The notes beneath the pieces were generated by a model that saw nothing but the letters and a program-made list of their open reading frames with translations, made no database searches and had not been told where the DNA came from. A DNA stretch of 30,610 nt from contig NZ_MWQY01000005.1 of assembly GCF_002087085.1 (NCBI RefSeq), positions 186,001 through 216,610 of the forward strand, given 5' to 3'. Shown here piece by piece: positions 5,273 to 24,377 of the stretch (position 1 is the first letter of the stretch; each line of letters begins with the position of its first letter). The position numbers were made by a program, and so were the translations under genes.

Positions 5273-5761
5273 ATGAGTATTCGTGAAAAAGCCGCTTTTA
5301 TCGCAGAGAACGCAGCTGTTACCGGGGATGTCACCATGGGAAAGGATGCATCAGTCTGGTACGGAGCATCAGTCCGGGGAGATTATGCTCCTATAGTCAT
5401 TGGGGATTCCTCCAACATACAGGATAATGCCAGTGTTCACGTAGATCATGACGCCCCCGTCAAGATCGGCAAAGGGGTTACCATCGGCCACAACGCTGTT
5501 ATTCACGGCTGCACCGTGGAGGATGACTGTCTTATAGGCATGGGTGCAATCATTCTGAACCGGGCTGTAATCGGTAAGGGTGCCATCATCGGGGCCGGCG
5601 CTCTGGTAACCGAAGGCAAGGTAATACCCCCGGGATCCCTGGCGGTGGGCTCCCCCGCCAAGGTCATGAGAAAGGTCTCCGACGAAGAGTTGAAGCGTGT
5701 TCGTCAGAACGCCTCATCCTATGTTGAGATGGCCCGGAGGCATAACGCGGGAGAGTTCTAG
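5273..5761 (+). CDS. Gamma carbonic anhydrase family protein (YrdA/CaiE-like, hexapeptide-repeat beta-helix)
   Basis: VWYGASVRGD, SNIQDNASVH and TIGHNAVIHGC (three His zinc ligands), IGMGAIIL, GSPAKV. TATAAT at 5255-5260. Confidence 0.9.
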   Translation: MSIREKAAFIAENAAVTGDVTMGKDASVWYGASVRGDYAPIVIGDSSNIQDNASVHVDHDAPVKIGKGVTIGHNAVIHGCTVEDDCLIGMGAIILNRAVIGKGAIIGAGALVTEGKVIPPGSLAVGSPAKVMRKVSDEELKRVRQNASSYVEMARRHNAGEF

Positions 5762-8700
5762 GAACTTCCCGCACTCCTTTTTTCCCAGCGCTCCATGCCC
5801 CTGCGCACTGCATCGATCAGATAGGGCCTCATCTGCGAGGCCTTTACAATATGATCGATGGATCCGACCTCCCGGGCCCGTTCAACGCTGTGTATACCGT
5901 CAAACTCTGCCCCCAGAGCTGTCTGGTATTCGTTATATACCGTCTGATACAGGTTATCAAACTCCTTGTAACCCCATTCACCGGATTTCAAACGTTCCCG
6001 GGCTTCCATGACCCGCGTATCATCTTCGGTGCGCTTTCTGACGGTTTTCGGAAATACCACCGCAGCAGCCGGGGCCCCTCCGATTACCGATGCGAAGGAG
6101 CCTTCAAGAGCTGCGACCTCGAGTTCCGGGTTCAGCCTCTTGGAGAAGACTACATAGGCCCCGCCGTGATAGCGGGCGGTGACCAGAAAAACAAGGGGGC
6201 CTCTGAAGTTTACAACTGCCCTTCCTATCTCAGCTCCATATTCGAGCTGGAGTCTGCGCAGCGATTCCGGTGATCCGTCGAATCCCGAGAGATTCGCAAT
6301 GATGACAGCCGGTACCCTTCCGGAGAAGGCATTCAGCCCCCGGGCCAGCTTTTTTGAAGACTGGGGATAGAGGGTCCCTCCGCTCCAGGTATCCGGACCG
6401 TCGGAAGGCAGGGCACCGATACGGGGAAAGCTGCGGCTTTCGATACCGATCATACCCACAGACAAACCGCCGAGACGGGTCTCCCAGACCAGAGAGGTAT
6501 CCCCGTCTTCGAGCCCTCTCCATCGCTCGAGGATTTCCGCGTCCTGGTCCACAAGGGCACGCATAACCTGGCGCATGTCGAAGGGCTTTTTTCTGTCGGG
6601 ATTCAAATCCATGCTGAAGATATCTCCGATGCTGGTGAATCCCTGACCAAGACTGTCCCGATAGGGCACGGTGGTTACATCCCGCTCATCGGGGTCGGAG
6701 CATTCCACAGGTTCAGGAAAAGAGCTGCCAGGCTTAACATAGCAGGTACGATAATGCTGAAAGAGTACGCCGTAGGCCTCGGCAACGGAAGCGACCCGTA
6801 TCTGGGCCTGGCCGTTGGGGACCATGATTTTCTCTGCACCGCCGATATCCACATTTGTTTCCCCCGACACGCTGCCGGAGAAGTCCAGGGCCCGTTTCCC
6901 GGTAAGAAGCATGGAAGCCTCATCGGTCATGATCAGAAGTCCCCGGGTATGCATCAGCATGGTGGCTTCGGCATTCCAGTAGGACTGGGCGCCCACATTT
7001 ATAGACTGGACGATTATATTTATTTCGCCCCCGGCCTGGGTGAATTCTATTATCCTTTTCAGGGTTGCAGCGGTCCAGTCCAGGTTTTCGGTACCCGAAT
7101 CCATGGTGATTCTGGCTCCGGAGGATACCGGAACCCATTCCACGGGAATTGAATCCTCTTCGGCCATATCGATGGCGCATATAATCCTGCGGCATTCCTC
7201 TTCCGCCAGGCTGCCGAGATCTCCGGTGGGATCCGAGAGAATCAGCATGCGATGAAAAACCGTTCCGCTCACAGGATCGGTATTGCTGATCCTGCCGAAT
7301 ATTATATTGCTGCCGTTGTTTCCGGGTTCACGTCCCTTTACCGAAACAGCCCTGCCGGACCCGTCTGCGGCGACCTCGATATCGAATTCTTCAAACTCAC
7401 CTCGTGGCAAACCCTCATGCAGGGGAAATCCGGCGTGGGTAATCATCTTTATGAGTTCGTAGGGATAAATCTCGTTACGCTGACGCGCCCGGACCACCTT
7501 GAGGGCATAACTGTCCAGGGTCGTCAGGGGCACCGATGAGGGGCGCCGGCTGCGCAGGGTAAACTGGTCCGCCGTAAGATTGTGGAAGATCAGTTCATGT
7601 TCACGGATGGTTTCTTCCCTCCATCGTTTGCGTCGTGAATAGACGACCATCTTTTCCAGGCCAAGACCGATGGTTCTGGGAACCAGGTTGTAACCGAAAT
7701 CCCGGAGCTGCATCAGGCGCAGTCCCAGAAGAGATCTGTTGTAGATGATAATCCGGTTCCACTGAAGCCTGAAACGGTAGTTCTGCTGGGCGGCGCGTAT
7801 GCCGGAAACCGCCTCGTTGAAGACCCGCTCAAATCGAAGCATCCTGGTAAGGTCCTGCCGCGAGGAGAGTTCGGGATCCGTCTCGGAGGTTGAAGCAAGG
7901 GCGAAAAGGCGCATGTCCTTTTCGTTCTCCTTTGCCCGGCCTTCCAGAACAGTGACATTTTCGCTGCGCAGTATCAGTTTGAGATGAAAATTCTTCAGTC
8001 TTTCCACCCGGAGCTCCCGATATTCCAGGGGCGAAAAGGTGAACGCACCGTCGTTGATACTCCATTTTCCGGTATCACCATACTGGTAGGTAGTAAACTG
8101 CGGTTCATCCTGCTCCGGGTAGACTCCCAGAGCGCAGAATTTACAGGGAAAAGGGGCAAGAGAATCGATATAATCCCCGGGGCTGCCCTGCCCCGAAATA
8201 AGTATCGTGACTTCAACTGATTCACAGTCCGGGAAATTCCGGACTATGCCTGGTATTCTCTCAAGAGCCTCGGGAGAAAAGGCAGCAAAAAGAAGTCCGC
8301 CCTTCCGGTCCTTTTCATTCTCCTCATCCTCAGTGAAATCGATCCTGGCCCGGAAAAGATCCTTCCCATCAGAGGATGTCTTGAGAGAATGAATTTTCCT
8401 GTCCCGGTTAAAATACCGGGCCGCCAGCTCCGAGAGAAGTTCCGAACTCCCTGTTCGGGTCGATTTTATTATACGCATCATGTCCGTCATGGCCGAAGGC
8501 GGAAGGTCCATAAAGGACTGCGTACACTCATCGAAACTTCCTGAATTGCCGCTGCAGCTCTCCGAAACCAGGGATTCAACGAATTTGCGCTGTCTTCCCC
8601 GCTGTTCCTGGAGTTGCTGCTGGTCGATCAGAACATAGCGCGCATGCAGGGCGGCGTCCGCCAGTTTGGGAGATCCAAGGTTACTCAGACGTACAATCTC

Positions 8701-11286
8701 GTTCACCAGAAGGGGAAAACCCTCTCCCAGCATTTCTGCTGCGGACCGTTCTTCCAGAAGCTGCAGCAAATCCCGCAGGATCTGACCTTTCAGGGCTGAA
8801 GCCGCATGGGAACGGTAAAAATGGTACAGAAGTCTGTCGATTTCATCACTGACTCCTGCATCGCGATATGCCGCCAGGGCACGGTCTATGGACTGGATAA
8901 ATCCTTGAGGAAGCCCCTTTTCACGGTCTTTCCTGCGCAGAGCATAGTGGGTCAGGAGTTCAGTATAGGTGTGCGGCCTGCTGCCGCTCTCATCTTCAAT
9001 GCTTCGGTTTGAAAAGAGAAGCTCCAGAGCGCAGAATGCCTCCATGCTGCGCAATACCAGCCGGGTAAAAGCATCGGTACGGTCAGGGTTCTGGGTAATA
9101 AAGGCCTCGATCCGGTTAACAAGATCGGAAGAATCCTCCCCTGCATCAAAGCCGAGAAAAATTGCCTGGACTTCATTGGCAATGCGTTCCCAACGCTCCT
9201 GGAGCCCGGGTTCAATATGGGGAAAATCGATTTTAACCGCAGCCGGCTCTTTCGTATCAGTATTGTCCCCGGCCTCCTCCAGCCGGATAAGGGACTGTCC
9301 TGCCGCCACCTGGGTTCCGGGGTTCGCAAGAATCTCAGCGACCTGACCATCCGCAGGCGATTCAATGAGCATCTCCATCTTCATGGCTTCAAGAACCATA
9401 AGGACGCTGCCTTTTCTGACCTCCTCGCCGGCCTTCACGGGAACAGAAAGCACAATAGCCGGGGATGGGGATTTGACGAAGCCCCTGGACTCCTGCTCAA
9501 GAAGAAAGGGTGTTCCGTTGATTTCACACTGAAGGGAATCTCCCCTGGGGACAAGGATAAAGCGGTAACGCTGGCCGTTAAACTCCAGGACGCCCTCATG
9601 GTCAGTGCTGCGATACCTGCATATTACGAAGGCATCGTCCACTATTACGTGAAAGCTGTCTCCGCCTGTATGCAGCACCTTTGCACAATAGGCTGCGCCT
9701 TCAATGGAAAGATTGACCTCCTGCCCGTCCCGGCCCGGAAGGGTTCTCGGTTTTCCCAGACTGGCTAATTCATTGATAAAATTAACCTTCTCTTCCGCTG
9801 AGCGCGACAATGCAATGGTAATCGCCCCGGTCACAAGGGCCGCCCGGAATGTTTCGTCCGGTGCGCGGCGGATTCCCTTTTTGAGGAGCTCTCCCACGTA
9901 GGCGGTGGAAACCCCGCCCGCCTTTACCTCAGGCTGATCCAGAAGCTGCCGCAGGAACGCACGGTTGGTTGTTCCGTTTTCAATGCGGATAGTACACTCG
10001 TCAAGGGCCCTTTTCAGCCGGGAGGCCGCCTCGTCCCGGTCCCGTCCCCGGGCTATGATCTTGGCGACCATGGAATCGAACTCCGGGGGAATCTCCGCAC
10101 CGCTCTCTATTCCCGAATCGACCCTGATGCCGGGACCTGCGGGGGGCCGGAAAAGGTCCACCCGGCCCGGGGCGGGGGAAAATTCCATTCCCGGATCTTC
10201 GGCATTGAGGCGGGCCTCCATTACATGACCCCGGGGTGCCGCGAAACTCACGTCCACTTTTCTCCCGAAGGCCACCTCTATCTGTCCGGTTACAAGATCG
10301 ATCCCGTAGAGTTCTTCCGTAATCGGATGTTCGACCTGAAGCCGGGTATTGACTTCCATAAAATAGAAGCGTCGGGAATCCAGATCGAACAGGTATTCCA
10401 CGGTACCCGCGCCCTCGTAGGAGGCAGCCTTGATGAGCCGTGCCGCGGAGGCCTCCATCTCCTCGATGGTCTCCGGCGGCAGTCCCGCTGGAGGGGTCTC
10501 CTCTATTATCTTCTGGTTCCGGCGCTGCAGGGAACAGTCCCTTACGCCGAAGGTATTTACCGTACCATGACGATCCGCCAGGACCTGAACCTCCAGGTGC
10601 CTTCCCCGCCGGACAAGGTGTTCGATAAAGACAGTCCGGGTACCCGTAACCCGCAGAGTCTCTTCCACGGCGGAGTTATACTGGGATTCCAGCTCCTCGG
10701 GACGCAGAACAAAACGTATTCCCCGTCCGCCTCCGGCATTGGAAGCCTTGACGATAACAGGATACCCGATCTTCTCTGATACTTTTCGGGCTTCTTCGAT
10801 ATTCGATACCGGACCGCGGCTCCAGGGAAGAATGGGAACATCCGCTTTTTCCGCCAGATCCTTCGCCGCTATCTTGTCTCCCAGCAGGGCCATGGCTCTG
10901 CTGTTGGGACCGAGAAAGGTATAACCTTCCTTTTCGACCGCCTCGGCAAAAACCGAGTCCTCCGACACAAAACCCCATCCGACCCACAGGGCGTCGCAGC
11001 CGCCCGCCTTGAGAGCCTCGAGGATAAGGGCATGGTCAAGATAGGGAGAACTTGCCGTACCGGGATACCCCGGAAGGTCTTCGAAACAGACCCGGTAATC
11101 GGCATTCTTGACAAAGGGTGCCTGTTCCTCCCGGGCCGTATAGATAGCCAGAGTCCTGAGTTCTGTTTCAAAACGGGAGTTATATTCACTGACTCCCCGA
11201 ATAAAACGCAAAGCAGCTTCGCCGCGGTTTACGATTCCAATCCGTGAATGTTTGTGTAATACTGGTGTTGCAGTTTGGGGTGCCAA
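5758..11286 (-). CDS. Single-chain multidomain acetyl/acyl-CoA carboxylase (biotin carboxylase + BCCP + central region + carboxyltransferase), 1842 aa
   Basis: BC motifs NRGE, WVGWGF, KASNAGGGRG, RDCSLQRRNQK, EVNTRLQVEH and FDSMVAK. Biotinyl motif EAMKM (Lys636, nt 9379-9381). CT motifs SSGARI, ANLSGFDG and GGAYVV. TTG start 7 nt after a GAGGAGG RBS (11300-11294). Confidence 0.92.
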   Translation of the reverse strand: MAPQTATPVLHKHSRIGIVNRGEAALRFIRGVSEYNSRFETELRTLAIYTAREEQAPFVKNADYRVCFEDLPGYPGTASSPYLDHALILEALKAGGCDALWVGWGFVSEDSVFAEAVEKEGYTFLGPNSRAMALLGDKIAAKDLAEKADVPILPWSRGPVSNIEEARKVSEKIGYPVIVKASNAGGGRGIRFVLRPEELESQYNSAVEETLRVTGTRTVFIEHLVRRGRHLEVQVLADRHGTVNTFGVRDCSLQRRNQKIIEETPPAGLPPETIEEMEASAARLIKAASYEGAGTVEYLFDLDSRRFYFMEVNTRLQVEHPITEELYGIDLVTGQIEVAFGRKVDVSFAAPRGHVMEARLNAEDPGMEFSPAPGRVDLFRPPAGPGIRVDSGIESGAEIPPEFDSMVAKIIARGRDRDEAASRLKRALDECTIRIENGTTNRAFLRQLLDQPEVKAGGVSTAYVGELLKKGIRRAPDETFRAALVTGAITIALSRSAEEKVNFINELASLGKPRTLPGRDGQEVNLSIEGAAYCAKVLHTGGDSFHVIVDDAFVICRYRSTDHEGVLEFNGQRYRFILVPRGDSLQCEINGTPFLLEQESRGFVKSPSPAIVLSVPVKAGEEVRKGSVLMVLEAMKMEMLIESPADGQVAEILANPGTQVAAGQSLIRLEEAGDNTDTKEPAAVKIDFPHIEPGLQERWERIANEVQAIFLGFDAGEDSSDLVNRIEAFITQNPDRTDAFTRLVLRSMEAFCALELLFSNRSIEDESGSRPHTYTELLTHYALRRKDREKGLPQGFIQSIDRALAAYRDAGVSDEIDRLLYHFYRSHAASALKGQILRDLLQLLEERSAAEMLGEGFPLLVNEIVRLSNLGSPKLADAALHARYVLIDQQQLQEQRGRQRKFVESLVSESCSGNSGSFDECTQSFMDLPPSAMTDMMRIIKSTRTGSSELLSELAARYFNRDRKIHSLKTSSDGKDLFRARIDFTEDEENEKDRKGGLLFAAFSPEALERIPGIVRNFPDCESVEVTILISGQGSPGDYIDSLAPFPCKFCALGVYPEQDEPQFTTYQYGDTGKWSINDGAFTFSPLEYRELRVERLKNFHLKLILRSENVTVLEGRAKENEKDMRLFALASTSETDPELSSRQDLTRMLRFERVFNEAVSGIRAAQQNYRFRLQWNRIIIYNRSLLGLRLMQLRDFGYNLVPRTIGLGLEKMVVYSRRKRWREETIREHELIFHNLTADQFTLRSRRPSSVPLTTLDSYALKVVRARQRNEIYPYELIKMITHAGFPLHEGLPRGEFEEFDIEVAADGSGRAVSVKGREPGNNGSNIIFGRISNTDPVSGTVFHRMLILSDPTGDLGSLAEEECRRIICAIDMAEEDSIPVEWVPVSSGARITMDSGTENLDWTAATLKRIIEFTQAGGEINIIVQSINVGAQSYWNAEATMLMHTRGLLIMTDEASMLLTGKRALDFSGSVSGETNVDIGGAEKIMVPNGQAQIRVASVAEAYGVLFQHYRTCYVKPGSSFPEPVECSDPDERDVTTVPYRDSLGQGFTSIGDIFSMDLNPDRKKPFDMRQVMRALVDQDAEILERWRGLEDGDTSLVWETRLGGLSVGMIGIESRSFPRIGALPSDGPDTWSGGTLYPQSSKKLARGLNAFSGRVPAVIIANLSGFDGSPESLRRLQLEYGAEIGRAVVNFRGPLVFLVTARYHGGAYVVFSKRLNPELEVAALEGSFASVIGGAPAAAVVFPKTVRKRTEDDTRVMEARERLKSGEWGYKEFDNLYQTVYNEYQTALGAEFDGIHSVERAREVGSIDHIVKASQMRPYLIDAVRRGMERWEKRSAGSS

Positions 11287-11310
11287 AGGGTCGCCTCCTC
11301 ATGCAGTTTT

Positions 11311-11329
11311 TGTCGGCCGGTGGCCGCCT
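11311..11329. promoter_or_regulatory. Putative operator, copy 1 (TGTCGGCC-GGT-GGCCGCCT)
   Basis: Imperfect copy of the 8-3-8 palindrome, 10 nt upstream of the acc RBS. Confidence 0.55.
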
Positions 11330-11350
11330 TAAAGTCAAGGGAGTATACTC

Positions 11351-11380
11351 ATTCTACACCTGCGCGTCGAGGGCCGGCAA
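11351..11380 (-). promoter_or_regulatory. Candidate sigma70 promoter for acc
   Basis: Minus strand TTGCCG (11380-11375), 18 nt, TAGAAT (11356-11351). An alternative -10, TATACT, lies at 11347-11342. Confidence 0.45.
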
Positions 11381-11397
11381 CACACTTATGGAATGTT

Positions 11398-11416
11398 TTT
11401 CGGCCGATGGCTGATA
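11398..11416. promoter_or_regulatory. Putative operator, copy 2 (TTTCGGCC-GAT-GGCTGATA)
   Basis: Imperfect copy of the 8-3-8 palindrome in the middle of the divergent acc/fabH spacer. Confidence 0.55.
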
Positions 11417-11464
11417 TTTTCTGGATATATTGGACATTCAGGACACTGATAGCCCTGGTACGCC

Positions 11465-11494
11465 TTGACTTTGTTCGGGGATAGTGAGTAAACA
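11465..11494 (+). promoter_or_regulatory. Candidate sigma70 promoter for the fab operon
   Basis: TTGACT (11465-11470), 18 nt, TAAACA (11489-11494). The -10 is weak. Confidence 0.4.
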
Positions 11495-11502
11495 CTGTAT
11501 TC

Positions 11503-11521
11503 AGTCGGCCAATGACCGATA
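11503..11521. promoter_or_regulatory. Putative operator, copy 3 (AGTCGGCC-AAT-GACCGATA)
   Basis: Near-palindromic copy ending 2 nt before the fabH RBS AGGAGG (11524-11529). Confidence 0.6.
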
Positions 11522-11533
11522 TCAGGAGGATTG

Positions 11534-12511
11534 ATGAACGCGACCATCCGGTCGGCAGGTGCATACCTGCCGCCTAAACGAGTAAGCAACCAGGATCTGG
11601 CACAGATTATAGACACCTCCGATGAATGGATACGCAGTCATACCGGAATCGGTTCCCGTCATCTGGCAGAGAGTGAGACAACTTCCGAAATGGCAACAGA
11701 GGCGGCCCGGGAGGCTCTTTCCAGATGCGGTATTTCTGCAGAGGAACTGGATATGATAATAGTGGCCACCAGCACACCGGATTACATCGGATTCCCCGCC
11801 ACGGCCAGTATTGTACAGAATAACATCGGTGCCCTGCGCAGCGGGGCCTTCGACCTTGCTGCAGCGTGTACGGGTTTTGTCTATGCCATGGAGTGCGGCA
11901 GAGGGCTCATTTCTTCCGGTGTGGCCCGAAACGTTCTTGTCATCGGCGCTGAAAAACTATCCAGTCTGGTAAACTGGAAGGACCGCTCAACCTGCGTTCT
12001 GTTCGGAGACGGAGCCGGTGCGGTAGTGCTGAGCGCCTGTGACGACGACAGGGGATTCCTGGCATCCCGTATGCGTTCCGACGGAAGCGGAGCCGACGCC
12101 CTTATCGTACGGGCGGGGGGGATAAAAAATCCCATACGAGGTCAGAATATTCCGGAGGAGGATCTCTATATCGCCATGGACGGACGCAGGGTTTACAACT
12201 TTGCCGTTCAGGTCAATACGGAGCTCTTTGAGGTCCTCCCCGCCGAGGCGGGAATCTCCATTGACGAGATAAAATACATAGTCCCCCATCAGGCCAACGT
12301 ACGAATTATCAAGGCCGCAGCAAAGCGAGCCGGGATTCCCATGGAAAAGTTTTACCTTAACATAGAGGAATACGCAAACACCTCGGCCGCTTCCATTCCT
12401 ATTGCGCTCAACGATTTATGGAAGGATGGGAGACTGAATCCCGGGGATGTCATCATGACTCTGGGCTTCGGCTCCGGTCTCACCTACGGCGGCCAGCTGA
12501 TTCGGCTGTAA
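11534..12511 (+). CDS. fabH: Beta-ketoacyl-ACP synthase III
   Basis: DTSDEWI..TGI, catalytic triad AACTGF / PHQAN / YANTS, LFGDGAGA, GFGSGLT. AGGAGG RBS. Confidence 0.95.
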   Translation: MNATIRSAGAYLPPKRVSNQDLAQIIDTSDEWIRSHTGIGSRHLAESETTSEMATEAAREALSRCGISAEELDMIIVATSTPDYIGFPATASIVQNNIGALRSGAFDLAAACTGFVYAMECGRGLISSGVARNVLVIGAEKLSSLVNWKDRSTCVLFGDGAGAVVLSACDDDRGFLASRMRSDGSGADALIVRAGGIKNPIRGQNIPEEDLYIAMDGRRVYNFAVQVNTELFEVLPAEAGISIDEIKYIVPHQANVRIIKAAAKRAGIPMEKFYLNIEEYANTSAASIPIALNDLWKDGRLNPGDVIMTLGFGSGLTYGGQLIRL

Positions 12512-12529
12512 AGCGTGGGGTGTCATTTC

Positions 12530-12548
12530 TGTCGGTCCTTGACCGACA
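12530..12548. promoter_or_regulatory. Putative operator, copy 4 (perfect palindrome TGTCGGTC-CTT-GACCGACA)
   Basis: Perfect 8-3-8 inverted repeat in the fabH-fabD spacer, overlapping TTGACC (12539-12544). Confidence 0.65.
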
Positions 12549-12568
12549 AAATCAGTGCGTGGTAAGGT
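12539..12568 (+). promoter_or_regulatory. Internal promoter for fabD and downstream fab genes
   Basis: TTGACC, 18 nt, TAAGGT (12563-12568) with an extended TGg, then 8 nt to the ATG at 12577. No SD. Confidence 0.5.
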
Positions 12569-12576
12569 CTCACACA

Positions 12577-13533
12577 ATGAAATCAGATATAAAGAGGAAC
12601 TGTTTCTTATTTCCCGGTCAGGGCGCTCAATTCCCCGGCATGGGCAAGGATTTATGGGAAACCTCTTCAGTGGTAAAAAAGCTCTTTGCAGAGGCTTCGG
12701 AATGGACGGAAACGGACATTCCAAAACTGCTCTTTGAATCGGGAGAGGATGAACTCAAGAGGACTGAAAACACCCAGATAGCCATCACAGCGGTAAATCT
12801 GGCATCCCTGATCATGCTGAAGGACGAGGGAATCACTCCGGATGCCGTCGCGGGTTTCAGTCTCGGAGAGTTCTCCGCCCTGGCTGCAGCGGAGGTACTG
12901 AACTTTGAAGAGCTTTTTCCCCTGGTAAAAAAACGGGGGGAGATAATGGCTGCAGCTGCGGAACGACTCTCCGCCGGAGAAAACGGCCCGGGCATGGCCG
13001 CTGTCATGGGTCTGGCTCCGGAAGCTGTGCAGGAACTCTGTGAAAAATCGGGTCTTGAACTCTACGCGGCCAATTTCAACAGTCCCGAGCAGACTGTCGT
13101 TGGCGGGACCCACGAGGCTCTGCTGAAAGGTAAAGAGTACTTCAGCACCAGGGGTGCCAGACGCTGGATTCCTTTGAAGGTATCAGCCCCCTTTCATACC
13201 CCCCTCATGGAGGAGGCACGGCAGGAGTTCGCAGAACATGTGCGGAAGCTTGTATTCAGGGATCCGAAAATTACCCTGATCTCGAATGTCTCGGGAAAAA
13301 CAGTCTCCAGCGGCACGGAGGCGCAGGAACTGTGCCTTGCCCAGGTAATATCCCCGGTTCGCTGGACGACGGAAGAGGAGACAATCCTCACATTAAAAAC
13401 GGATATCTGCATCGAAGCAGGCCCGGGGAAGGTTCTTTCCGGGCTCTGGAAAAAGACAGGAAGTGAAGTTCCCTGCCTCAATGCGGGGACCCTTGAAGAA
13501 ATCGAAAACATCAGGAAGAGTTACAGTTCATAG
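12577..13533 (+). CDS. fabD: Malonyl-CoA:ACP transacylase
   Basis: LFPGQGAQ..GMG, TENTQ, GFSLGE (catalytic Ser), ANFNSPEQTVVGG, VSAPFH, SPVRW, EAGPGKVL. Confidence 0.93.
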   Translation: MKSDIKRNCFLFPGQGAQFPGMGKDLWETSSVVKKLFAEASEWTETDIPKLLFESGEDELKRTENTQIAITAVNLASLIMLKDEGITPDAVAGFSLGEFSALAAAEVLNFEELFPLVKKRGEIMAAAAERLSAGENGPGMAAVMGLAPEAVQELCEKSGLELYAANFNSPEQTVVGGTHEALLKGKEYFSTRGARRWIPLKVSAPFHTPLMEEARQEFAEHVRKLVFRDPKITLISNVSGKTVSSGTEAQELCLAQVISPVRWTTEEETILTLKTDICIEAGPGKVLSGLWKKTGSEVPCLNAGTLEEIENIRKSYSS

Positions 13534-13542
13534 GAGGACACA

Positions 13543-14283
13543 ATGTTACTGGAAGGAAAAAAAGCCCTGGTCACCGGCGGGGCCCAGGGAATAGGAAAAG
13601 AGATTGTCATGAAGTTTCTGGCCGAAGGAGCATCGGTACACTACTGCGACCTTGCGGAAGGTCCGTTCAAGGCGGAAATGGATGCAGCAGCCAAAGGCGA
13701 TGCAACGGTTACATTTCACAAGGCCAATATTACCGATGAGAACGAGGTCAAGGCCCTGATAAAGGAGATTACCGCCGACGGCAAGCTCGATATACTCGTC
13801 AATAATGCCGGAATTACCCGGGACGGAATGGTATTCCGCATGTCCCTTGACCAGTGGGAGTCTGTACTCAAGGTAAACCTTACCGGTGCCTTTCTGGTAG
13901 CCAGAGAAGTATCCGCCTTTATGGCCATGAAGCAGAAATCCGGCAGCATTATCAATATGGCTTCGGTGGTCGGCCAGATGGGCAATGCCGGGCAGACCAA
14001 CTACTCCGCTTCCAAGGCAGGGCTGATCGGTTTTACCAAGAGCCTGGCAAAAGAGACGGCAAAACGGAATGTCCGGGTCAATGCCGTAGCCCCGGGCTTT
14101 ATTGAAACAGCCATGACCGACAAGCTGACCGAGGATGTCAAGGCAGACTATGCCCGGGCTATTCCCCTGGGAAGAATGGGAAGCCCCGAAGACATCGCCA
14201 ACACCGTTCTCTACCTGGCCAGTGACCTGTCGTCCTATATAACCGGCCAGGTTATCAGGGTCGACGGCGGCCTTGTAATGTAG
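13543..14283 (+). CDS. fabG: 3-oxoacyl-ACP reductase
   Basis: TGGAQGIG, NNAGITRD, GNAGQTNYSASKAG, APGFIET, ITGQVIRVDGG. AGGAGG RBS. Confidence 0.95.
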   Translation: MLLEGKKALVTGGAQGIGKEIVMKFLAEGASVHYCDLAEGPFKAEMDAAAKGDATVTFHKANITDENEVKALIKEITADGKLDILVNNAGITRDGMVFRMSLDQWESVLKVNLTGAFLVAREVSAFMAMKQKSGSIINMASVVGQMGNAGQTNYSASKAGLIGFTKSLAKETAKRNVRVNAVAPGFIETAMTDKLTEDVKADYARAIPLGRMGSPEDIANTVLYLASDLSSYITGQVIRVDGGLVM

Positions 14284-14313
14284 AGATACAGATAAAGACG
14301 AAGGGAGATAGAT

Positions 14314-15561
14314 ATGGAACGCCGACGAGTCGTCGTGACCGGCATGGGGACGGTAAACGCCCTTGCCCATGACATAGAAAACACCTGGCAGGCAATCAAG
14401 GCCGGGAAAAGCGGGATTGCACCCATAAGCCTGTTTGACACCACCGATTTTGCCTGTACCGTAGCCGGCGAAGTCAAAAACTTCGACCCGAGTCTCTGGA
14501 TGGATAAAAAGGAGGCTCGAAAACTTGCCCGTTTCAGTCAGTTTGCCATGGCCGCGGCGGCCCAGGCGCTGGAAGACTCGGGACTGGATAAAGGCTGCGG
14601 CGATCCCGAACGGGTCGGCGTTATCCTCGGGAACGGTATCGGGGGATACGAGGTAACCGAAGAGGGAGTACGAAACCTGGCGGAACGGGGTCCCAAGGGG
14701 GTCGCACCCATGACTATCCCCAAGCTTATCAGTAACGAGGGGCCCGCAAACGTCGCTATCAAGTACGGATTTTACGGCCCCTGTTACTGCGTGGTTACCG
14801 CCTGTGCCTCCGCTACCGATGCCATCGGCGCGGCGCTGAACTCCATCAGGATCGGGCAGAGCGATGTGGTGGTTACCGGAGGCATGGAAGCAGCTATAAC
14901 CCCCTTCGGAATCGCCGGATTCCTGCGCCTGACGGCCCTTTCCACCAAATACAATGATACTCCCACCGCCGCCAGCCGGCCCTTCGACAGGGACCGGGAC
15001 GGTTTTGTAATGGGAGAAGGTGCGGGGATTCTCGTTCTCGAAGAGCTCGAACACGCCCTCAAACGGGGAGCTCCCATATATGCGGAAGTGGCGGGTTACG
15101 GTATCAGCTGTGATGCCTTCCATCTGACAAGTCCCGATGCAACTGGAGAAGGTCCCGCCCGCTCCATGCGACTGGCCCTCCAGGACGCGGGTATGGAACC
15201 GTCTCAGATCGATTACCTCAATGCCCATGGCACATCCACACCGACCAACGATCCCCTGGAAACCATGGCAATAAAAAAGGCCTTTGGGGATCATGCGTAT
15301 AAAATGCCGATCTCCTCAACCAAATCCATGACGGCCCATATGATCGGCGGTGCAGGAGGCATGGAGGCCATTCTGAGCATTCTTGCCATGAAGAACGGTT
15401 TTATTCCTCCCACCATCAATCTTGAGAATCCCGATGAAGCCTGCGATCTGGACTATGTTCCCAATACAGGGCGAAAAGCCGAGCTGAAAGCCGTCATGTC
15501 TGACAATCTTGGTTTCGGCGGACACAACGGAACAGTAATTTTTAGAAAATACGAGGAGTAA
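14314..15561 (+). CDS. fabF: Beta-ketoacyl-ACP synthase II
   Basis: RRVVVTGMG, TACAS (catalytic Cys), SRPFDRDRDGFVMGEGAG, NAHGTST, SSTKSMTAHMIG, GFGGHN. Confidence 0.95.
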   Translation: MERRRVVVTGMGTVNALAHDIENTWQAIKAGKSGIAPISLFDTTDFACTVAGEVKNFDPSLWMDKKEARKLARFSQFAMAAAAQALEDSGLDKGCGDPERVGVILGNGIGGYEVTEEGVRNLAERGPKGVAPMTIPKLISNEGPANVAIKYGFYGPCYCVVTACASATDAIGAALNSIRIGQSDVVVTGGMEAAITPFGIAGFLRLTALSTKYNDTPTAASRPFDRDRDGFVMGEGAGILVLEELEHALKRGAPIYAEVAGYGISCDAFHLTSPDATGEGPARSMRLALQDAGMEPSQIDYLNAHGTSTPTNDPLETMAIKKAFGDHAYKMPISSTKSMTAHMIGGAGGMEAILSILAMKNGFIPPTINLENPDEACDLDYVPNTGRKAELKAVMSDNLGFGGHNGTVIFRKYEE

Positions 15562-15564
15562 ACT

Positions 15565-15987
15565 ATGAAAGATATACAAGAACTGCTGCCCCACAGAAAG
15601 CCCTTCCTGTTCGTGGATGAACTTTTGGAAGTCTCGGAGGAAAAGATAATCGGAAAGCGTACTTATACGCCGGAGGAGTTCTTTTTCCCCGGTCATTTTC
15701 CCGAGTATCCGGTTGTTCCCGGGGTGATCCTGGTGGAGACCATGGCCCAGTGCGGCGGTGCGGGGGTTCGTCAGCTCGGCAGCCTGGGAGACGATACCCT
15801 CTTTTTTCTTGCCGCCATCGAAAAGGCCAAGTTTCGCCGGCAGGTCCGCCCCAACGAGACTATCCGGATGGAGATAAGCAACGACCGAATCTCTGCAAGA
15901 ATGATCAAACAGAGCGGCAAGTGCTATGTCGATGACGAACTGGCCTGTGAGGCTTCATGGCTTTGCCTGGTGGGGGATAAAGCATGA
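15565..15987 (+). CDS. fabZ: 3-hydroxyacyl-ACP dehydratase
   Basis: LPHRKPFLFVD, GHFPEYPVVPGVILVE.MAQ, AKFRRQVRP. GAGGAG RBS at the end of fabF. Confidence 0.93.
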   Translation: MKDIQELLPHRKPFLFVDELLEVSEEKIIGKRTYTPEEFFFPGHFPEYPVVPGVILVETMAQCGGAGVRQLGSLGDDTLFFLAAIEKAKFRRQVRPNETIRMEISNDRISARMIKQSGKCYVDDELACEASWLCLVGDKA

Positions 15988-17153
15988 TAATTACCCCCAA
16001 AATTCGCAACAATATCTGCATGAATGCCCATCCGGTGGGCTGCGAACGGGAGACCCTGAACCAGATCGAATATGTCAGGAATAAAGGGAAATTCGCAGGG
16101 CCAAAGACTGCTCTTGTTGTGGGCTCCTCGACGGGCTACGGTCTGGCCTCAAGAATTTCCCTGGCCTTTGGCGCCGGTGCAGACACCATCGGCGTCTTTT
16201 TCGAAAAAGAGGGCAGCGACAAACGTCCCGGAACTCCCGGTTACTACAACAACAGGGCCCTCGAGAAGGCCGCCCGGGAAGCAGGGCTCAAGGCGGACAG
16301 CGTAAACGGCGACGCCTTTTCCCACGGGGTAAAAAAACAGGTTATCGATCTTATTAAAGAAAAATACGGAAGCATTGACCTGGTGATCTACAGCCTCGCC
16401 TCCCCCGTGAGGGTGGATCCTGATACGGGCGAGATGTATCGGTCCGTGCTGAAACCCCTCAAGGGGACATATACAGCCAAATCCGTCAATGCCATGACTG
16501 GTGAGGTAAGCGAAGCCTCCATCGAACCTGCCAATCAGGAGGAACTTGAGGCTACCGTAAAGGTGATGGGAGGAGAAGACTGGCAGCTCTGGATACGGGC
16601 ACTCAAGGATGCCGGTGTTCTCTCCGAAGGTGCCATGAGCGTAGCCTACTCCTATATCGGTCCTGAGGTCACCTATGCCGTATACCGGGAGGGAACCATC
16701 GGCAAGGCAAAGGAGCACCTGGAAAGGAGCGCATCGGAAATCAGTAAAATTCTTGATCCGCTGAAAGGGAAAGCCTTCGTTTCCGTGAACAAGGCCCTGG
16801 TTACCCGGGCAAGCGCAGTCATCCCCGTGGTCCCCCTCTACATGTCCATCCTCTACAAGGTCATGAAAAACAAGGGGATTCACGAAGGATGCATTGAACA
16901 GATGTACCGTCTGTTTACACAGCGGCTCTATACACAGGGGGAAATCCCCGTGGACGATGAGGGCCGTATCCGGGTAGACGACTGGGAGATGCGACCGGAT
17001 GTACAGGAGGAGATCACGAAACTCTGGGAACAGGTCGATTCCGGCAACATCGAAGAGATCGGCGACATGGACGGTTACAGGGAAGATTTTCTGCGCCTGA
17101 ACGGTTTCAACGTACCCGGTGTCGACTATGATGCCGAAGTAAACGATTTTTGA
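15984..17153 (+). CDS. fabV: Enoyl-ACP reductase FabV / trans-2-enoyl-CoA reductase family
   Basis: MIITPKIR..IC.NAHPVGC, GSSTGYGLASRI, NGDAFS, YSLASP, VMGGEDW, YSYIGP, Y..GTIGKAK, KALVTRAS..IP. ATGA overlap with fabZ. Confidence 0.93.
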   Translation: MIITPKIRNNICMNAHPVGCERETLNQIEYVRNKGKFAGPKTALVVGSSTGYGLASRISLAFGAGADTIGVFFEKEGSDKRPGTPGYYNNRALEKAAREAGLKADSVNGDAFSHGVKKQVIDLIKEKYGSIDLVIYSLASPVRVDPDTGEMYRSVLKPLKGTYTAKSVNAMTGEVSEASIEPANQEELEATVKVMGGEDWQLWIRALKDAGVLSEGAMSVAYSYIGPEVTYAVYREGTIGKAKEHLERSASEISKILDPLKGKAFVSVNKALVTRASAVIPVVPLYMSILYKVMKNKGIHEGCIEQMYRLFTQRLYTQGEIPVDDEGRIRVDDWEMRPDVQEEITKLWEQVDSGNIEEIGDMDGYREDFLRLNGFNVPGVDYDAEVNDF

Positions 17154-17169
17154 CACTTCTGTAATCAGC

Positions 17170-17197
17170 AAGCCCGGTTTTATGCCGGGCTTTATTA
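17170..17197. terminator. Intrinsic terminator between convergent fabV and the queuosine-precursor transporter
   Basis: AAGCCCGG-ttttatg-CCGGGCTT hairpin followed by TATTA (T-rich tail on the + strand). Confidence 0.7.
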
Positions 17198-17204
17198 TAG
17201 GTGC

Positions 17205-17906
17205 CTAGAGATATCTCTCCCGAATCCGTTTTGCCCAGTATATAAAGGGTGTATCCGCTACCGCCACCAGCCACTTGAAAAGATACGTGGTAATAAGAAT
17301 GTCGATGAGAACACGTACCTCGTAGATACCCCAGAAAGCGATCAGGACAAAAATAACTGAGTCTATTAACTGACTCACCATGGTACTCAGATTGTTGCGG
17401 ATCCAGATATGCCTGTCTTCGGGAAATCGGCTGCGCCAGAAACTGTAGGCCCATACATCGTGGCGCTGAGAAAGAATATATGCCACGAGACTGGCTCCCG
17501 CCACCCGGGGCATAACGAGAAATATCGTTGCCAGCGCTCCCTGGGCAAAATCGGAGGGTGCCGGTATGAACCAGAGGGCGATATTCATGAAAAGGGTCAT
17601 AACAAGAACAGCGAAGAACCCTACCCACACAGCCTTTTTTGCCTCCTCTTTTCCATGATTCTCCGAAAGAATATCGGTAACCAGAAAGGATGTGGCATAG
17701 ACAATATTGCCCAGGGTTGCCGCAAGGCCAAAGATATGTACGGTTTTGAGGACCTGTATGTTCGCAATAATTACAGAGATCGGAATCCAGACAAAAAGTC
17801 CGGTTTTTCCCATTATGCGATATAATGCGATGATCGTAAAAAAATTGATAAACAGAAACGCCACCCACAGGGCTTCGTTCTGAAAAGGAAAAACCAGGTC
17901 TGCCAT
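17205..17906 (-). CDS. yhhQ: Queuosine precursor transporter (YhhQ/VUT, DUF165 family)
   Basis: IANIQVLK, GNIVYATSFLVTDILSE.HG..EA, SQRHDV and WIRNNLSTMVSQLIDSVIF are family hallmarks. GGAGG RBS. Confidence 0.88.
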   Translation of the reverse strand: MADLVFPFQNEALWVAFLFINFFTIIALYRIMGKTGLFVWIPISVIIANIQVLKTVHIFGLAATLGNIVYATSFLVTDILSENHGKEEAKKAVWVGFFAVLVMTLFMNIALWFIPAPSDFAQGALATIFLVMPRVAGASLVAYILSQRHDVWAYSFWRSRFPEDRHIWIRNNLSTMVSQLIDSVIFVLIAFWGIYEVRVLIDILITTYLFKWLVAVADTPFIYWAKRIRERYL

Positions 17907-17920
17907 CTGCCCTCCGTAAA

Positions 17921-17964
17921 ATCGGATAGTTTAGCAAACTACCGGATGGGTAAGTTTTTTTCAA
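17921..17964 (-). promoter_or_regulatory. Promoter of the queuosine-precursor transporter, with an inverted repeat over the -10 element
   Basis: Minus strand TTGAAA, 17 nt, TAGTTT. Inverted repeat ATCCGGTAGTTT-gct-AAACTATCCGAT (17947-17921), 10 of 12 positions matching. Confidence 0.5.
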
Positions 17965-19341: not shown

Positions 19342-19371
19342 TCCATACCTCTGAGTTTTTGGACCATCGAT

Positions 19372-20298: not shown

Positions 20299-20314
20299 GC
20301 CTCTATTCTATTCT

Positions 20315-20353
20315 AAAAAAAGACGGTACGAAACTGATCGCACCGTCTTTTTT
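20315..20353 (-). terminator. Strong intrinsic terminator after the first lipoprotein gene
   Basis: Minus strand A6-GACGGTGCGA-tcagtt-TCGTACCGTC-T7 (10-bp stem with one G-U pair). Confidence 0.8.
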
Positions 20354-20381
20354 GGTAAATAATTATAAGCTTATCGAGCTG

Positions 20382-20921: not shown

Positions 20922-21001
20922 TTTTTTCTCCTTTGCCAAAGAAAGCCTTTGAAGTATAGCCTACTCCTTTCCATGGTCCTTTTCAAGTTTTCTTTGCTAA
21001 A

Positions 21002-21283: not shown

Positions 21284-21344
21284 CTCCTCACCCGGTGATT
21301 GAAGAGGAACGATGGCACCTCTACTTGAACAATCCCGCGATTCA

Positions 21345-21374
21345 TGTTAACCGTAATGAATCTTATGGTTAACG
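21345..21374. promoter_or_regulatory. BirA operator (bioO-like)
   Basis: TGTTAACC-N14-GGTTAACG matches the established BirA box TGTtAAC-N14-16-GTTaACA and lies at the head of the birA-bioY operon. Confidence 0.8.
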
Positions 21375-22315
21375 AGAACTCCGTATCGCGAAGCACCTTG
21401 CTCAATCACCTCCGTAAAAACAGTGATCCCCTTTCGGGAACGGATCTGGGCGGAATTCTTGGCATATCCCGGGTTGCGGTACGAAAACATATACTCAGGC
21501 TGGCAAAGGAAGGTTTTGTTATCGAGTCAGGCAGGAAGGGATATCGTCTGCTGTCCGAGCCCGAATTCCCCTCTCCTTCGGAATACGACTCCGGCACAAT
21601 CCATATACAGAACGAGGTTGAATCCACCATGGAAGAGGCCTCACGAAACTCTCTCCGTAATTGTGAAGATATACAGTTTTACCTCGCCCGCAGGCAGAAA
21701 GCAGGCCGGGGAAGAAACAGAAAATCCTGGGTTTCCCCTGACGGCGGCCTGTATCTGACTGCTGCCTTTCGTCCCCGGCTTCCGGCAGCTTATATCTCCC
21801 TCTACATAATAGAAACCGGCCTGGCCCTGGTCGATTCCTTACGGGAACACTATGGCGTGGATTGCCGGTTCCGCTGGCCCAACGATCTATTCGTGAACGA
21901 AAAGAAGCTTGGAGGACTGCTGCTTGAAGTATCCGGTCCGGCGGAATCCCCTGATCATGCTTTTCTCGGTTTAGGCCTGAACGTACTTTCCTCGGTCCAT
22001 TTTTCGGAAACGGGCGATCGCCGGGTCACCTGCCTTCAGAACGAGATTCCCGGCGGCGGCCGGGACCTCCCGGATTTAAAAACACTGTTCGAAACCTTGA
22101 AACCGGTTATAGAGTCTTCCCTCGGAATGATCGAAGCGGACAAGGTCCGGAAGCACTGGAGGGCCAGGACCTCTACTCAGGGAAAGGTTATGAGGATTGA
22201 TGATACCGATTATACCGTCCGGAATCTCGCCCTTAACGGGTCCCTGATTGTCGCTGACAAGGACGGGACATTGTACGAAATCGCACCGGGTCCGCGAATA
22301 ATGGGGCCCAGGTGA
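21365..22315 (+). CDS. birA: Bifunctional biotin--[acetyl-CoA carboxylase] ligase / biotin operon repressor
   Basis: N-terminal wHTH (SGTDLGGILGISRVAVRKHI..L...G..I....GY), ESTM, QKAGRGR..KSWVSP, RWPND, KKLGGLL, GLGLNV. The start is uncertain: in-frame ATGs at 21344, 21356 and 21365. Confidence 0.9.
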   Translation: MVNENSVSRSTLLNHLRKNSDPLSGTDLGGILGISRVAVRKHILRLAKEGFVIESGRKGYRLLSEPEFPSPSEYDSGTIHIQNEVESTMEEASRNSLRNCEDIQFYLARRQKAGRGRNRKSWVSPDGGLYLTAAFRPRLPAAYISLYIIETGLALVDSLREHYGVDCRFRWPNDLFVNEKKLGGLLLEVSGPAESPDHAFLGLGLNVLSSVHFSETGDRRVTCLQNEIPGGGRDLPDLKTLFETLKPVIESSLGMIEADKVRKHWRARTSTQGKVMRIDDTDYTVRNLALNGSLIVADKDGTLYEIAPGPRIMGPR

Positions 22316-22340
22316 CAACAGACTTTCATCGGGAGTACGG

Positions 22341-22886
22341 ATGAATCAGAAACAGCTTTCCATGGCCATTCACTCAGCAGTATTTTCCTCTCTTATTATT
22401 CTGGGGACCTTCATCCGGATACCCCTTGGACCGGTTCCCATTGTTCTGGCTAATTTCTTTGTTATTCTCTCCGGACTTTTTCTCGGTCCCCTCTGGGGCA
22501 GCCTTTCTGTACTGATCTATCTTCTTCTCGGCGCCCTCGGTCTTCCCGTTTTCAGCGCCGGCGGCGGATTCGCTGTCTTTTTGGGCCCAACTGGAGGGTA
22601 TCTTCTGGGGTATCCCGCGGGTTCCTTCCTGGCAGGACTTATCAGCCGGATAAATCCGAAAAGACTCACCGTTCTGCTGCTCTCCGCCGGTCTCGGAACG
22701 GCTGTCATCTACCTGCTTGGAGTCCCGTGGCTCATATGGAGGATTTCCGCCGCCACGGGAGAGGGTGTTTCTCTTGCCAGGGGGCTACTGATCGGTATGG
22801 TTCCCTTTATACCCGGGGATGTACTCAAAATCACTGCCGCCGCCATTGTCGCCCGTTCCCTGAACAGACTTGTCAGTCACCAATGA
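22341..22886 (+). CDS. bioY: Biotin ECF transporter S component
   Basis: IPLGPVPIVL, YLLLGALGLPVFS, GPTGGYLLGY, PFIPGDVLK. GGGAG RBS. Confidence 0.93.
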   Translation: MNQKQLSMAIHSAVFSSLIILGTFIRIPLGPVPIVLANFFVILSGLFLGPLWGSLSVLIYLLLGALGLPVFSAGGGFAVFLGPTGGYLLGYPAGSFLAGLISRINPKRLTVLLLSAGLGTAVIYLLGVPWLIWRISAATGEGVSLARGLLIGMVPFIPGDVLKITAAAIVARSLNRLVSHQ

Positions 22887-23635
22887 ATGAACCTGTTCTG
22901 AGCTTCCAGGATGTGGGATACCGTTTTTCCGACGGGTTCTGGGGTCTGAAACATGTTAATCTTGAACTCTTTGCCGGAGAACTCCTGCTTCTGGCGGGAT
23001 CCAACGGGGCGGGTAAAACCCTCCTCATGCGTCATGCCAACGGTCTGGCCAGGCCGACGGAAGGAAGAGTCCTGTATCGGGGGGAGGAAGTACACAAGGC
23101 AGGCAGGAAGATCAGACAGAGAATAGGCCTGGTTTTCCAGCATCCCGAGGAACAGATAATAGAAGAAAGCGTGGCCGCGGAGATTGCCTTTGGTCCCGGG
23201 AACCTGGGAATCCGGGGGGAACGACTGAAAAGCCTGGTTGAATCCAACCTGGAGCTTTTCGGACTCGCCCCGTATGCGGAACGACATCCAATGACCCTCT
23301 CCGGTGGAGAACGCCGGCGCCTGGCCCTCGCCTCGGTACTGGCCATGGAACCGGATATCCTGCTTCTGGATGAACCCTTTATGGAGCTCGATTATCCCGG
23401 GGTCCGTTCGCTGCTCTCTGTGCTGCTGAAACTCCATGCCGCCGGGCAGGGAATCTGCGTAATCACCCACGATGTGGGGAAAATCCTGGCCCACTGTGAC
23501 CGACTGGCCCTTATGAAGGACGGAACACTCAGCGCAGCGGGAAAACCGGAAGATCTGGTGGGACAGCTGGAGGAACACGGAGTGCGGAATCCCTGCCGGG
23601 GTGGAATGCTCCTGGAGCATGCGTCGTGGAGATGA
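22883..23635 (+). CDS. ECF transporter ATPase (BioM/EcfA-like)
   Basis: Walker A GSNGAGKT, GLVFQHPEEQ, EIAFGPGNLG, LSGGE, LLLDEP, ITHD. ATGA overlap with bioY. Confidence 0.9.
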   Translation: MNEPVLSFQDVGYRFSDGFWGLKHVNLELFAGELLLLAGSNGAGKTLLMRHANGLARPTEGRVLYRGEEVHKAGRKIRQRIGLVFQHPEEQIIEESVAAEIAFGPGNLGIRGERLKSLVESNLELFGLAPYAERHPMTLSGGERRRLALASVLAMEPDILLLDEPFMELDYPGVRSLLSVLLKLHAAGQGICVITHDVGKILAHCDRLALMKDGTLSAAGKPEDLVGQLEEHGVRNPCRGGMLLEHASWR

Positions 23636-24348
23636 GTTTTCCCCTTACCCCGGGGAAGTCACTGCTTCACCGTTACGACCCGCGGCTCAAGCTTGTCGTG
23701 CTGCTTGCCGCAGCAATGGGGGTACATCGGGCATCCGTGGCGGAACTTTCCGTTATGGCCCTGGGGCTGAGCATCGCACTTCCGGTTTTCCTTTCCCCCC
23801 GGCGTATTGCCCTGAGACAGATATGCTCCGCCTTTCGATTTGCCCTGGTACTCCTGATTCTGTCCATCGCAGCGGCGGGGGCATCTTCCTTTTCCATACT
23901 TCTCGCGTTTTCCACGCGCCTGTATACCTGGGTTGTTCTGGGCTTTCTTTACATCGGGACCACCAGTGTTTCTCAAATCCGCGGAACCTTCTACGCCCTC
24001 AGCCGATGGATCCCCGGTTTTCCGGCAGCCTCGTTTGCCCTTATGATATCCATAACCTTGAGTTTTCTGCCCCGTTTTGACCGTGCCCTGACAAGCGGGC
24101 GGGAAGCCCTGGCATCAAGGGGGGGCGTTCCATGGTACCGGCCTGTAAGGAAAATAAAGGCTATAAGTATCCCTCTGCTTCTGCGTACTGTCAGACAGTC
24201 AGTTCAGTTAAGCGAGGCCCTGTATGCAAGGGGATTCCACGAAAACCGGTCATTTCCCCTTGGAAAAATACCCCGGCTGCAATTGCTTGTCACCGCCGCA
24301 ATTATCGCGACACACCTCTGGTTTACGGTTTTTTTTCGTATACCTTGA
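23632..24348 (+). CDS. ECF transporter T component (BioN/EcfT/CbiQ-like)
   Basis: SLLHRYDPRLKL, hydrophobic helices and two X-R-G motifs (ASRG, ARG). ATGA overlap with the ATPase gene. Confidence 0.85.
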   Translation: MSFPLTPGKSLLHRYDPRLKLVVLLAAAMGVHRASVAELSVMALGLSIALPVFLSPRRIALRQICSAFRFALVLLILSIAAAGASSFSILLAFSTRLYTWVVLGFLYIGTTSVSQIRGTFYALSRWIPGFPAASFALMISITLSFLPRFDRALTSGREALASRGGVPWYRPVRKIKAISIPLLLRTVRQSVQLSEALYARGFHENRSFPLGKIPRLQLLVTAAIIATHLWFTVFFRIP

Positions 24349-24377
24349 AGGCTATCTCAGGTTATACTCCTTGTAAG

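Follow-up and report, generated by a model that had tools for sequence, protein, structure and literature searches.

The stretch of DNA analysed here (hereafter the window: 30,610 nt of NCBI RefSeq assembly GCF_002087085.1, contig NZ_MWQY01000005.1, forward-strand positions 186,001–216,610, with all coordinates below counted within it) harbors a gene for a single-chain acyl-CoA carboxylase at 5758..11286 on the minus strand. Its product is very probably the sole housekeeping acetyl-CoA carboxylase (ACC) of the spirochaete host, a one-chain enzyme of the "eukaryote-like" multidomain type found in bacteria, taking the place of AccABCD. Most bacteria possess separate AccA, AccB, AccC, and AccD. 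The gene is an unbroken open reading frame (ORF) of 1842 aa (204.8 kDa) with its stop codon at 5758–5760, as claimed in a first-pass annotation of this DNA, which did not give the strand; the plus-strand reading of 5758–11286 was rejected due to its many stops, leaving minus as the coding strand. In chain order, the protein comprises biotin carboxylase (BC), a BT stretch, the biotin carboxyl carrier domain (BCCP), a central region of ~590 aa, and carboxyltransferase (CT). The assignment draws on features observed here: this domain layout, the homology found for each part, intact motifs, sole-copy status, and gene context.

Pfam searches placed each catalytic part. The BC domain (9895..11247, minus; aa 14–464) consists of Biotin_carb_N (aa 14–132), the ATP-grasp family CPSase_L_D2 (aa 137–345, E 1.4e-61), and Biotin_carb_C (aa 357–464), with the ATP-grasp motifs GGGRG (185), NQKIIEE (257), and EVNTRLQVEHP (311) intact. 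The following BT-like linker (9487..9894, minus; aa 465–600) is predicted from the alignment of the family profile to yeast ACC, where the profile runs continuously from BC via the BT stretch and BCCP onto yeast residues 211–814; no Pfam match to this linker was found in the window protein itself. BCCP (9280..9474, minus; aa 605–669) matches Biotin_lipoyl (aa 605–669, E 4.4e-16) and carries the biotinyl-lysine K636 in EAMKM (633), with its codon at 9379–9381. The central region, a putative non-catalytic scaffold (7480..9249, minus; aa 680–1269), is helical at its N-terminal end and continues in two alpha/beta lobes, and the two-lobed CT (5761..7479, minus; aa 1270–1842) matches Carboxyl_trans (aa 1349–1824, E 1.2e-29) and holds the glycine motifs NVGAQSYW (1430) and RYHGGAYVV (1705). 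The BC and BCCP motifs and both CT glycine motifs were invariant across 21 family members, and, going by E. coli biotin carboxylase and PccB, we take them to mark catalytic residues. A catalytically impaired or regulatory paralogue is thus a very improbable reading, considering the presence and invariance of GGGRG, the NQK lysine, EVNTRLQVEHP, EAMKM, and both CT glycine motifs, the fact that the gene is the sole copy in the genome, and its conservation in 7/7 genomes of the host's order, each with a single CT match.

The motifs that the first-pass annotation had cited for the protein were all recovered, namely WVGWG (101), LGDKI (135), VPILPWS (150), and RHLEVQVLAD (229) in BC, EAMKM (633) in BCCP, and YPYEL (1274), REPGNN (1319), SSGARI (1388), ANLSGFDG (1664), and LEYGAEI (1681) in CT. 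The eukaryotic counterparts it had quoted were seen in alignments as well: yeast showed WAGWG, LGDKI, VPCIPWS, and RHLEVQLLAD in BC and YVYDF, REPGAN, NSGARI, and ANWRGFSG in CT, and LKYGSFI was seen in Chaetomium thermophilum.

The relation of the central region to eukaryotic ACC was visible only via profiles and fold search, because single-sequence tests were weak or empty. Two profiles were searched against the PDB, one of 21 full-length members (the family profile) and one of 12 rows covering central region and CT (the central+CT profile). The best solved match of the former was yeast ACC (5csk; 514 bits), with six collinear stretches, one of them in the central domain. With the latter, the top 22 PDB matches were all eukaryotic ACCs, the match to yeast residues 941–1610 reached 71.4 bits (E 5e-19), and isolated central-domain crystals were also retrieved (5i6e, 3.1e-9; 5csa, 7e-9; 5cs4, 1.2e-5). 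The 590 central residues, modelled with AlphaFold on a 43-row alignment, gave a pLDDT of 90.2 and a pTM of 0.87, and in a Foldseek search of the PDB the ranks listed from 1 to 31 were all yeast, Chaetomium, or human ACC, with a best E of 2e-19 over ~700 aligned columns and an identity to eukaryotic central domains of 12–15%; the first non-ACC match followed at E 3.5e-4 with a TM of 0.10. The model superposed on the AC3–AC5 crystal with a TM of 0.66 (rmsd 4.7), and the TM of 0.45–0.55 at high rmsd for the whole central region is as expected if its modelled sub-domains are hinged differently. Because of these profile matches and Foldseek results, the central region is considered truly homologous to the central domain of eukaryotic ACC, consistent with the eukaryotic layout proposed in the first-pass annotation.

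The CT also ranked with eukaryotic ACCs and not with PccB-type subunits, as the first-pass annotation had supposed, although this placement is a ranking by score and the CT tree described below holds neither eukaryotic nor PccB sequences. As a single sequence, CT alone scored 57–60 bits against fungal ACC CTs and ~52 bits against human ACC2, compared with at most 41 bits against any PccB/AccD5/AccD6-type subunit, and the central+CT profile scored 64–136 bits against eukaryotic ACC and at most 30.5 bits against the PccB type. The layout and the best solved matches given above for central region and CT, all eukaryotic, would fit recent acquisition of the gene from a eukaryote, or an assembly contaminated with eukaryotic DNA, an extremely improbable reading that is already contradicted by several results: the gene lies within a 30-kb bacterial window, has a Shine–Dalgarno site, and points away from a bacterial fab operon; its GC content (55.4%) is close to that of the whole window (54.0%); the same locus is present in sister genomes at 54–87% identity; the central domain is just 12–15% identical to those of eukaryotes; at least 579 bacterial species genomes hold relatives; and in the CT tree the protein falls in a spirochaete-dominated clade of 28 rows.

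In addition to the structure of the protein, the gene content of the host genome, a draft of 79 contigs that is 97.2% complete, bears on its role. Profile searches of this genome returned 0 matches for accA and 0 for accD, and the sole Carboxyl_trans match was the window ORF. The accC profile matched the window ORF and, at ~37 bits each, two ATP-grasp stretches in one 1080-aa frame, presumably a carbamoyl-phosphate synthase (carB-like), while the accB profile matched the window ORF, the biotin domain of an OadA adjoining OadB, and nothing else; separate accB and accC genes were not found by these searches. The window ORF is the only biotin carboxylase and the only carboxyltransferase found in the genome, and no standard accABCD set, which the first-pass annotation had regarded as a possible counter-indication, was found elsewhere in this 97%-complete assembly. 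Moreover, the type II fatty-acid synthase (FAS II) is complete, with fabHDGFZV beside the carboxylase gene and acpP elsewhere in the genome. Since FabD is present and no other carboxylase was found, there is no other evident source of malonyl-CoA.

The FAS II operon fabH-fabD-fabG-fabF-fabZ-fabV (11531..17153, plus), which consumes malonyl-CoA, is divergent from the carboxylase gene across 244 bp, and this divergent layout was kept in 3/3 loci of the host's family, including the sister-genome loci mentioned above. An alternative is that the protein is a broad-specificity acyl-CoA carboxylase whose main job is other than malonyl-CoA supply, such as propionyl-CoA carboxylation or the provision of precursors for secondary lipids or polyketides. 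This is compatible with the published description of SACE_4237, the related enzyme of Saccharopolyspora erythraea, which carboxylates acetyl- and propionyl-CoA with similar efficiency (Livieri 2019, Sci Rep 9:6725, PMC6491548), and with the lack of linkage to fab genes in 17/17 loci from other spirochaete families. It is nevertheless improbable, as it would leave malonyl-CoA without an evident source in a genome where the only BC and the only CT accompany a complete FAS II including FabD. Furthermore, no methylmalonyl-CoA mutase was found in the genome, no polyketide synthase was found in the window, and in the host's family the gene and fabH point away from each other.

The distribution of the enzyme was consistent with the housekeeping role. 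The best 120 database matches had 1341–1900 aa, mostly 1800–1900 aa, and were largely from Spirochaetales under generic names only; among the matches listed, Marispirochaeta reached 84% identity and Oceanispirochaeta and Thiospirochaeta 53–58%. An exhaustive central+CT search yielded 1719 clusters at a cut-off of E 1e-3 and 532 at the stricter E 1e-30, and a scan of one genome per species gave at least 579 confirmed loci, 80 of which belonged to Spirochaetota, Acidobacteriota, Actinomycetota, Myxococcota, Oligoflexia, Dormibacteraeota, Verrucomicrobiota, and others. The remark in the first-pass annotation that the class is not wholly new therefore stands, whereas the rarity it implied does not. 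In a phylum-wide sample of 151 genomes, only the window's own genome matched (0/150 others); as this sample included no more than 15 genomes from the host's class, a separate sample was drawn from that class, and 63/301 of its genomes (33/135 genera) carried the enzyme. Among these 301 genomes, accA was found in 113 and fabD in 255; 59 had the single chain only, 109 accA only, 4 both, and 129 neither, and since related genomes are not independent, no test statistic was applied to these counts. Most carriers (58/63) had fabD. Many class genomes also carry a PccB-like carboxyltransferase of ~520 aa (E about 1e-180), which suggests a third, two-subunit route to malonyl-CoA in the class, or else a methylmalonyl-CoA decarboxylase.

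An unrooted tree of 104 CT rows placed the window protein in a clade of 28 rows (SH-aLRT 99) composed of spirochaete sequences, two sequences from Oligoflexia, and one from a metagenome-assembled genome (MAG) labelled Neomarinimicrobiota, while the other side of the tree held 73 rows, including Acidobacteriota and Actinomycetota. The tree is silent on eukaryotes because it contains no eukaryotic sequence. Three candidates for such a sequence were rejected: P0262 (2381 aa) was of bacterial type, P0261 was a long-branch protein of bacterial type, and P0169 (1995 aa; EukProt, Mesostigma viride) nested among Actinomycetota, which indicates either that bacterial sequence contaminates the eukaryotic data set or that the gene was transferred. 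P0262, a metagenomic single-chain ACC, was found to be fused to a C-terminal biotin protein ligase (BPL_LplA_LipB and BPL_C). Two further placements could each reflect a binning error or transfer, namely that of L014, the contig of the MAG labelled Neomarinimicrobiota, nested in the spirochaete clade, and that of L066, a contig of a MAG labelled Spirochaetales, which paired with a sequence from Myxococcota. A rather doubtful extension of these results is that the spirochaete enzymes form a deep branch of their own that displaced the four-subunit enzyme early in the class and is now almost mutually exclusive with accA. If this were true and a rooted phylogeny of BC, central region, and CT placed the spirochaete and not the actinobacterial branch beside eukaryotic ACC, the bacterial source proposed for the eukaryotic enzyme would need revision.

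Several observations weigh against the assignment of the ORF as a eukaryote-like, sole housekeeping ACC. For the architecture, the Pfam model ACC_central (PF08326) scored 22.2 bits, below its gathering score of 23.2, and covered aa 821–915 only, so that among the domains named by the first-pass annotation Biotin_carb_N/C, CPSase_L_D2, Biotin_lipoyl, and Carboxyl_trans were recovered and ACC_central was not; a precomputed PF08326 match was present in 24 of the 120 listed homologues. A PDB search with aa 680–1269 alone as a single sequence gave 0 matches at E up to 10. The best solved relatives of the BC domain were bacterial biotin carboxylases (358 bits), which outscored yeast ACC (319 bits); the claim of the first-pass annotation that the protein looks closer to yeast is thus borne out for CT and the central region, but within BC it extends to a handful of motifs and not to the entire domain. 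Strong matches to the BC part also came from the NCBIfam models for AccC, pyruvate carboxylase, and urea carboxylase; none of the models reached its curated cut-off, which fits a protein outside these three families. For the role, the draft state of the genome (79 contigs) means that accABCD counts as not found, not as proven absent. In the class, 4/63 carriers also had accA, and 5/63 had no detected fabD, four of these being at most 91% complete and one 99% complete. Moreover, fabD was present in 90/129 genomes with neither enzyme type, which points to a third malonyl-CoA route and hence to at least three solutions in the class. Fab genes within 7 kb of the enzyme gene were seen in 0/17 loci from other families of the class. 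In addition, specificity cannot be read from homology because SACE_4237 uses both propionyl- and acetyl-CoA, and the ACC role proposed for this protein, as for any spirochaete member, is a prediction from sequence.

The mechanism of the enzyme can be outlined from its conserved domains and established knowledge of biotin carboxylases, with substrate, oligomer, and physiological role inferred. BirA would biotinylate K636, and the N-terminal BC would carboxylate this biotin using ATP and bicarbonate. BCCP would then swing to the C-terminal two-lobed CT, where the carboxyl group would be passed to acetyl-CoA to yield malonyl-CoA. The central region of ~590 aa is expected to be a scaffold without catalytic function that holds BC and CT in position, as it does in yeast and human ACC. 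The enzyme is probably active as a homodimer (~410 kDa), as SACE_4237 is. FabD, whose gene lies on the other side of the divergent promoter region, would load the malonyl group on acyl carrier protein for use by FAS II. In vitro, some side activity as a propionyl-CoA carboxylase is likely.

The similar enzyme that the first-pass annotation had cited from S. erythraea is indeed SACE_4237. According to its published description, it is a homodimeric multidomain acetyl- and propionyl-CoA carboxylase that is essential for fatty-acid synthesis and complemented an E. coli temperature-sensitive acc mutant; together with ~200-kDa actinobacterial "group V" relatives, it shares the central region with eukaryotic ACC, and an actinobacterial origin of the fusion was proposed (Livieri 2019). 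By homology, the window enzyme belongs to this bacterial multidomain ACC family, first characterised as SACE_4237, and it does not represent a new class because bacterial multidomain ACCs have been known since 2019 and are common. Like that type, it is one chain of ~200 kDa with the order BC–BT–BCCP–central–CT and a eukaryote-like central region, and it is a proposed essential source of malonyl-CoA. Comparison with SACE_4237 itself follows the published description, whereas sequence identities were obtained for other actinobacterial members, including a Pseudonocardiaceae genome: in end-to-end alignment, loci of Amycolatopsis, Micromonospora, and Gordonia showed 38–43% identity over 1624–1825 of 1842 residues. 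Unlike the actinobacterial type, the window protein falls in the separate spirochaete-dominated CT clade, and its host has no other acyl-CoA carboxylase found, in contrast to S. erythraea, which has several (Livieri 2019).

With eukaryotic ACC (yeast Acc1, 5csk/5csl; human ACC1, 6g2d/8xkz), the enzyme shares the domain order, collinearity over its whole length, a homologous central domain, and a CT that is closer by score than to any bacterial beta subunit. It differs in its length (1842 aa versus 2218–2407 aa in the solved chains), in its shorter central region (~590 versus ~700 aa) with the low identity noted above, in the PF08326 score under threshold, in a BC nearer to bacterial BCs, and in its bacterial context with a Shine–Dalgarno site and a FAS II partner operon. 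The single-chain long-chain acyl-CoA carboxylases (LCC) likewise unite all catalytic domains in one bacterial polypeptide; by published description, they have an N-terminal CT and a C-terminal BC–BCCP, form hexamers, and lack a central region (Livieri 2019), whereas the window protein runs in the opposite order, from BC to CT, with a central domain between. Compared with the heteromeric AccA/AccB/AccC/AccD, the same chemistry and role, supply of malonyl-CoA to FAS II, are proposed here for one chain instead of four subunits with a split CT, none of the four being found in the genome, and in the host's class the two types rarely occur together (4/301 genomes).

The result fills a gap left in 2011, when no ACC subunits were reported from the three spirochaete genomes then examined (Lombard & Moreira 2011): approximately one fifth of the sampled class genomes carry a one-gene, eukaryote-style enzyme instead. 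A full-text literature search turned up no description of a spirochaete member or of how widely the family is distributed, with most subscription journals and supplements lying outside its coverage. What is new here is a member in a clade and host group for which no characterised example was found in the literature; it adds a well-separated clade to the data on the origin of eukaryotic ACC, and does not change knowledge of how such enzymes work. Because the enzyme, from a lineage of marine anaerobes, is compact and seems self-sufficient as a source of malonyl-CoA, it may also serve pathway engineering.

The start of the gene was assigned to TTG at 11284–11286, preceded by a Shine–Dalgarno sequence GAGGAGG (11294–11300, 7 nt upstream of the TTG; both within 11284..11300), and an in-frame TGA at 11299–11301 closes the carboxylase frame just upstream. 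A homologue 97% identical to the window protein likewise has 1842 aa, at 100% coverage. The 244 bp that separate the divergent carboxylase and fabH genes (11287..11530) hold two promoter-like sites at 11380–11351 and 11370–11342 (minus), which serve as leads only; the promoter scan gave 6 sites, not above the 3.8 ± 1.9 in shuffles, and was not used, and neither were the terminator-like sites from the scan, which fall within coding sequence. Metatranscriptome contigs of 151–318 nt from three RNA libraries of two studies covered parts of the gene with 1–7 differing letters each, a hint at most because such contigs cannot show transcription and DNA carry-over is possible; uncovered parts of the gene carry no information.

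Further along the window, 10 kb from the carboxylase gene, a block of plus-strand genes comprises a birA-like biotin ligase/repressor (21344–22315), bioY (22341–22886), an ECF ATPase (22727–23635), and an ECF T component (23626–24348), and together these genes (21344..24348) are predicted to supply and attach biotin. In the 17 other spirochaete loci, the neighbours of the enzyme gene were heterogeneous and no conserved partner was seen. A FlK-like hot-dog thioesterase gene adjoins the single-chain ACC gene in 2/3 examined loci of one spirochaete family (L100:6513–6986 and L113:12625–13080). In the window, a 162-aa hexapeptide-repeat transferase (5273–5761, plus) converges on the ACC gene, overlapping its stop codon by 4 nt, and this neighbour was kept in both same-genus loci examined. 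The listed fabD ORF (12418–13533, plus) shares 94 nt with the end of fabH and is matched by Pfam only from residue 63 onward; the true fabD start is probably further downstream. Three consecutive genes with the LPP20 lipoprotein domain (449, 308, and 185 aa) occupy 17992–20939 on the minus strand, and two ORFs, of 285 aa (17107–17964) and 717 aa (24132–26285), had no Pfam match. Elsewhere in the host genome, contig C34 (L005:409–3183, minus) carries an 1142-aa frame, 924 residues of which were analysed, with a 2-oxoacid dehydrogenase E1 piece, transketolase-like domains, a lipoyl domain, and a FabH-like KAS III in this order. Such a fusion is unusual and could directly prime the synthesis of branched-chain fatty acids.

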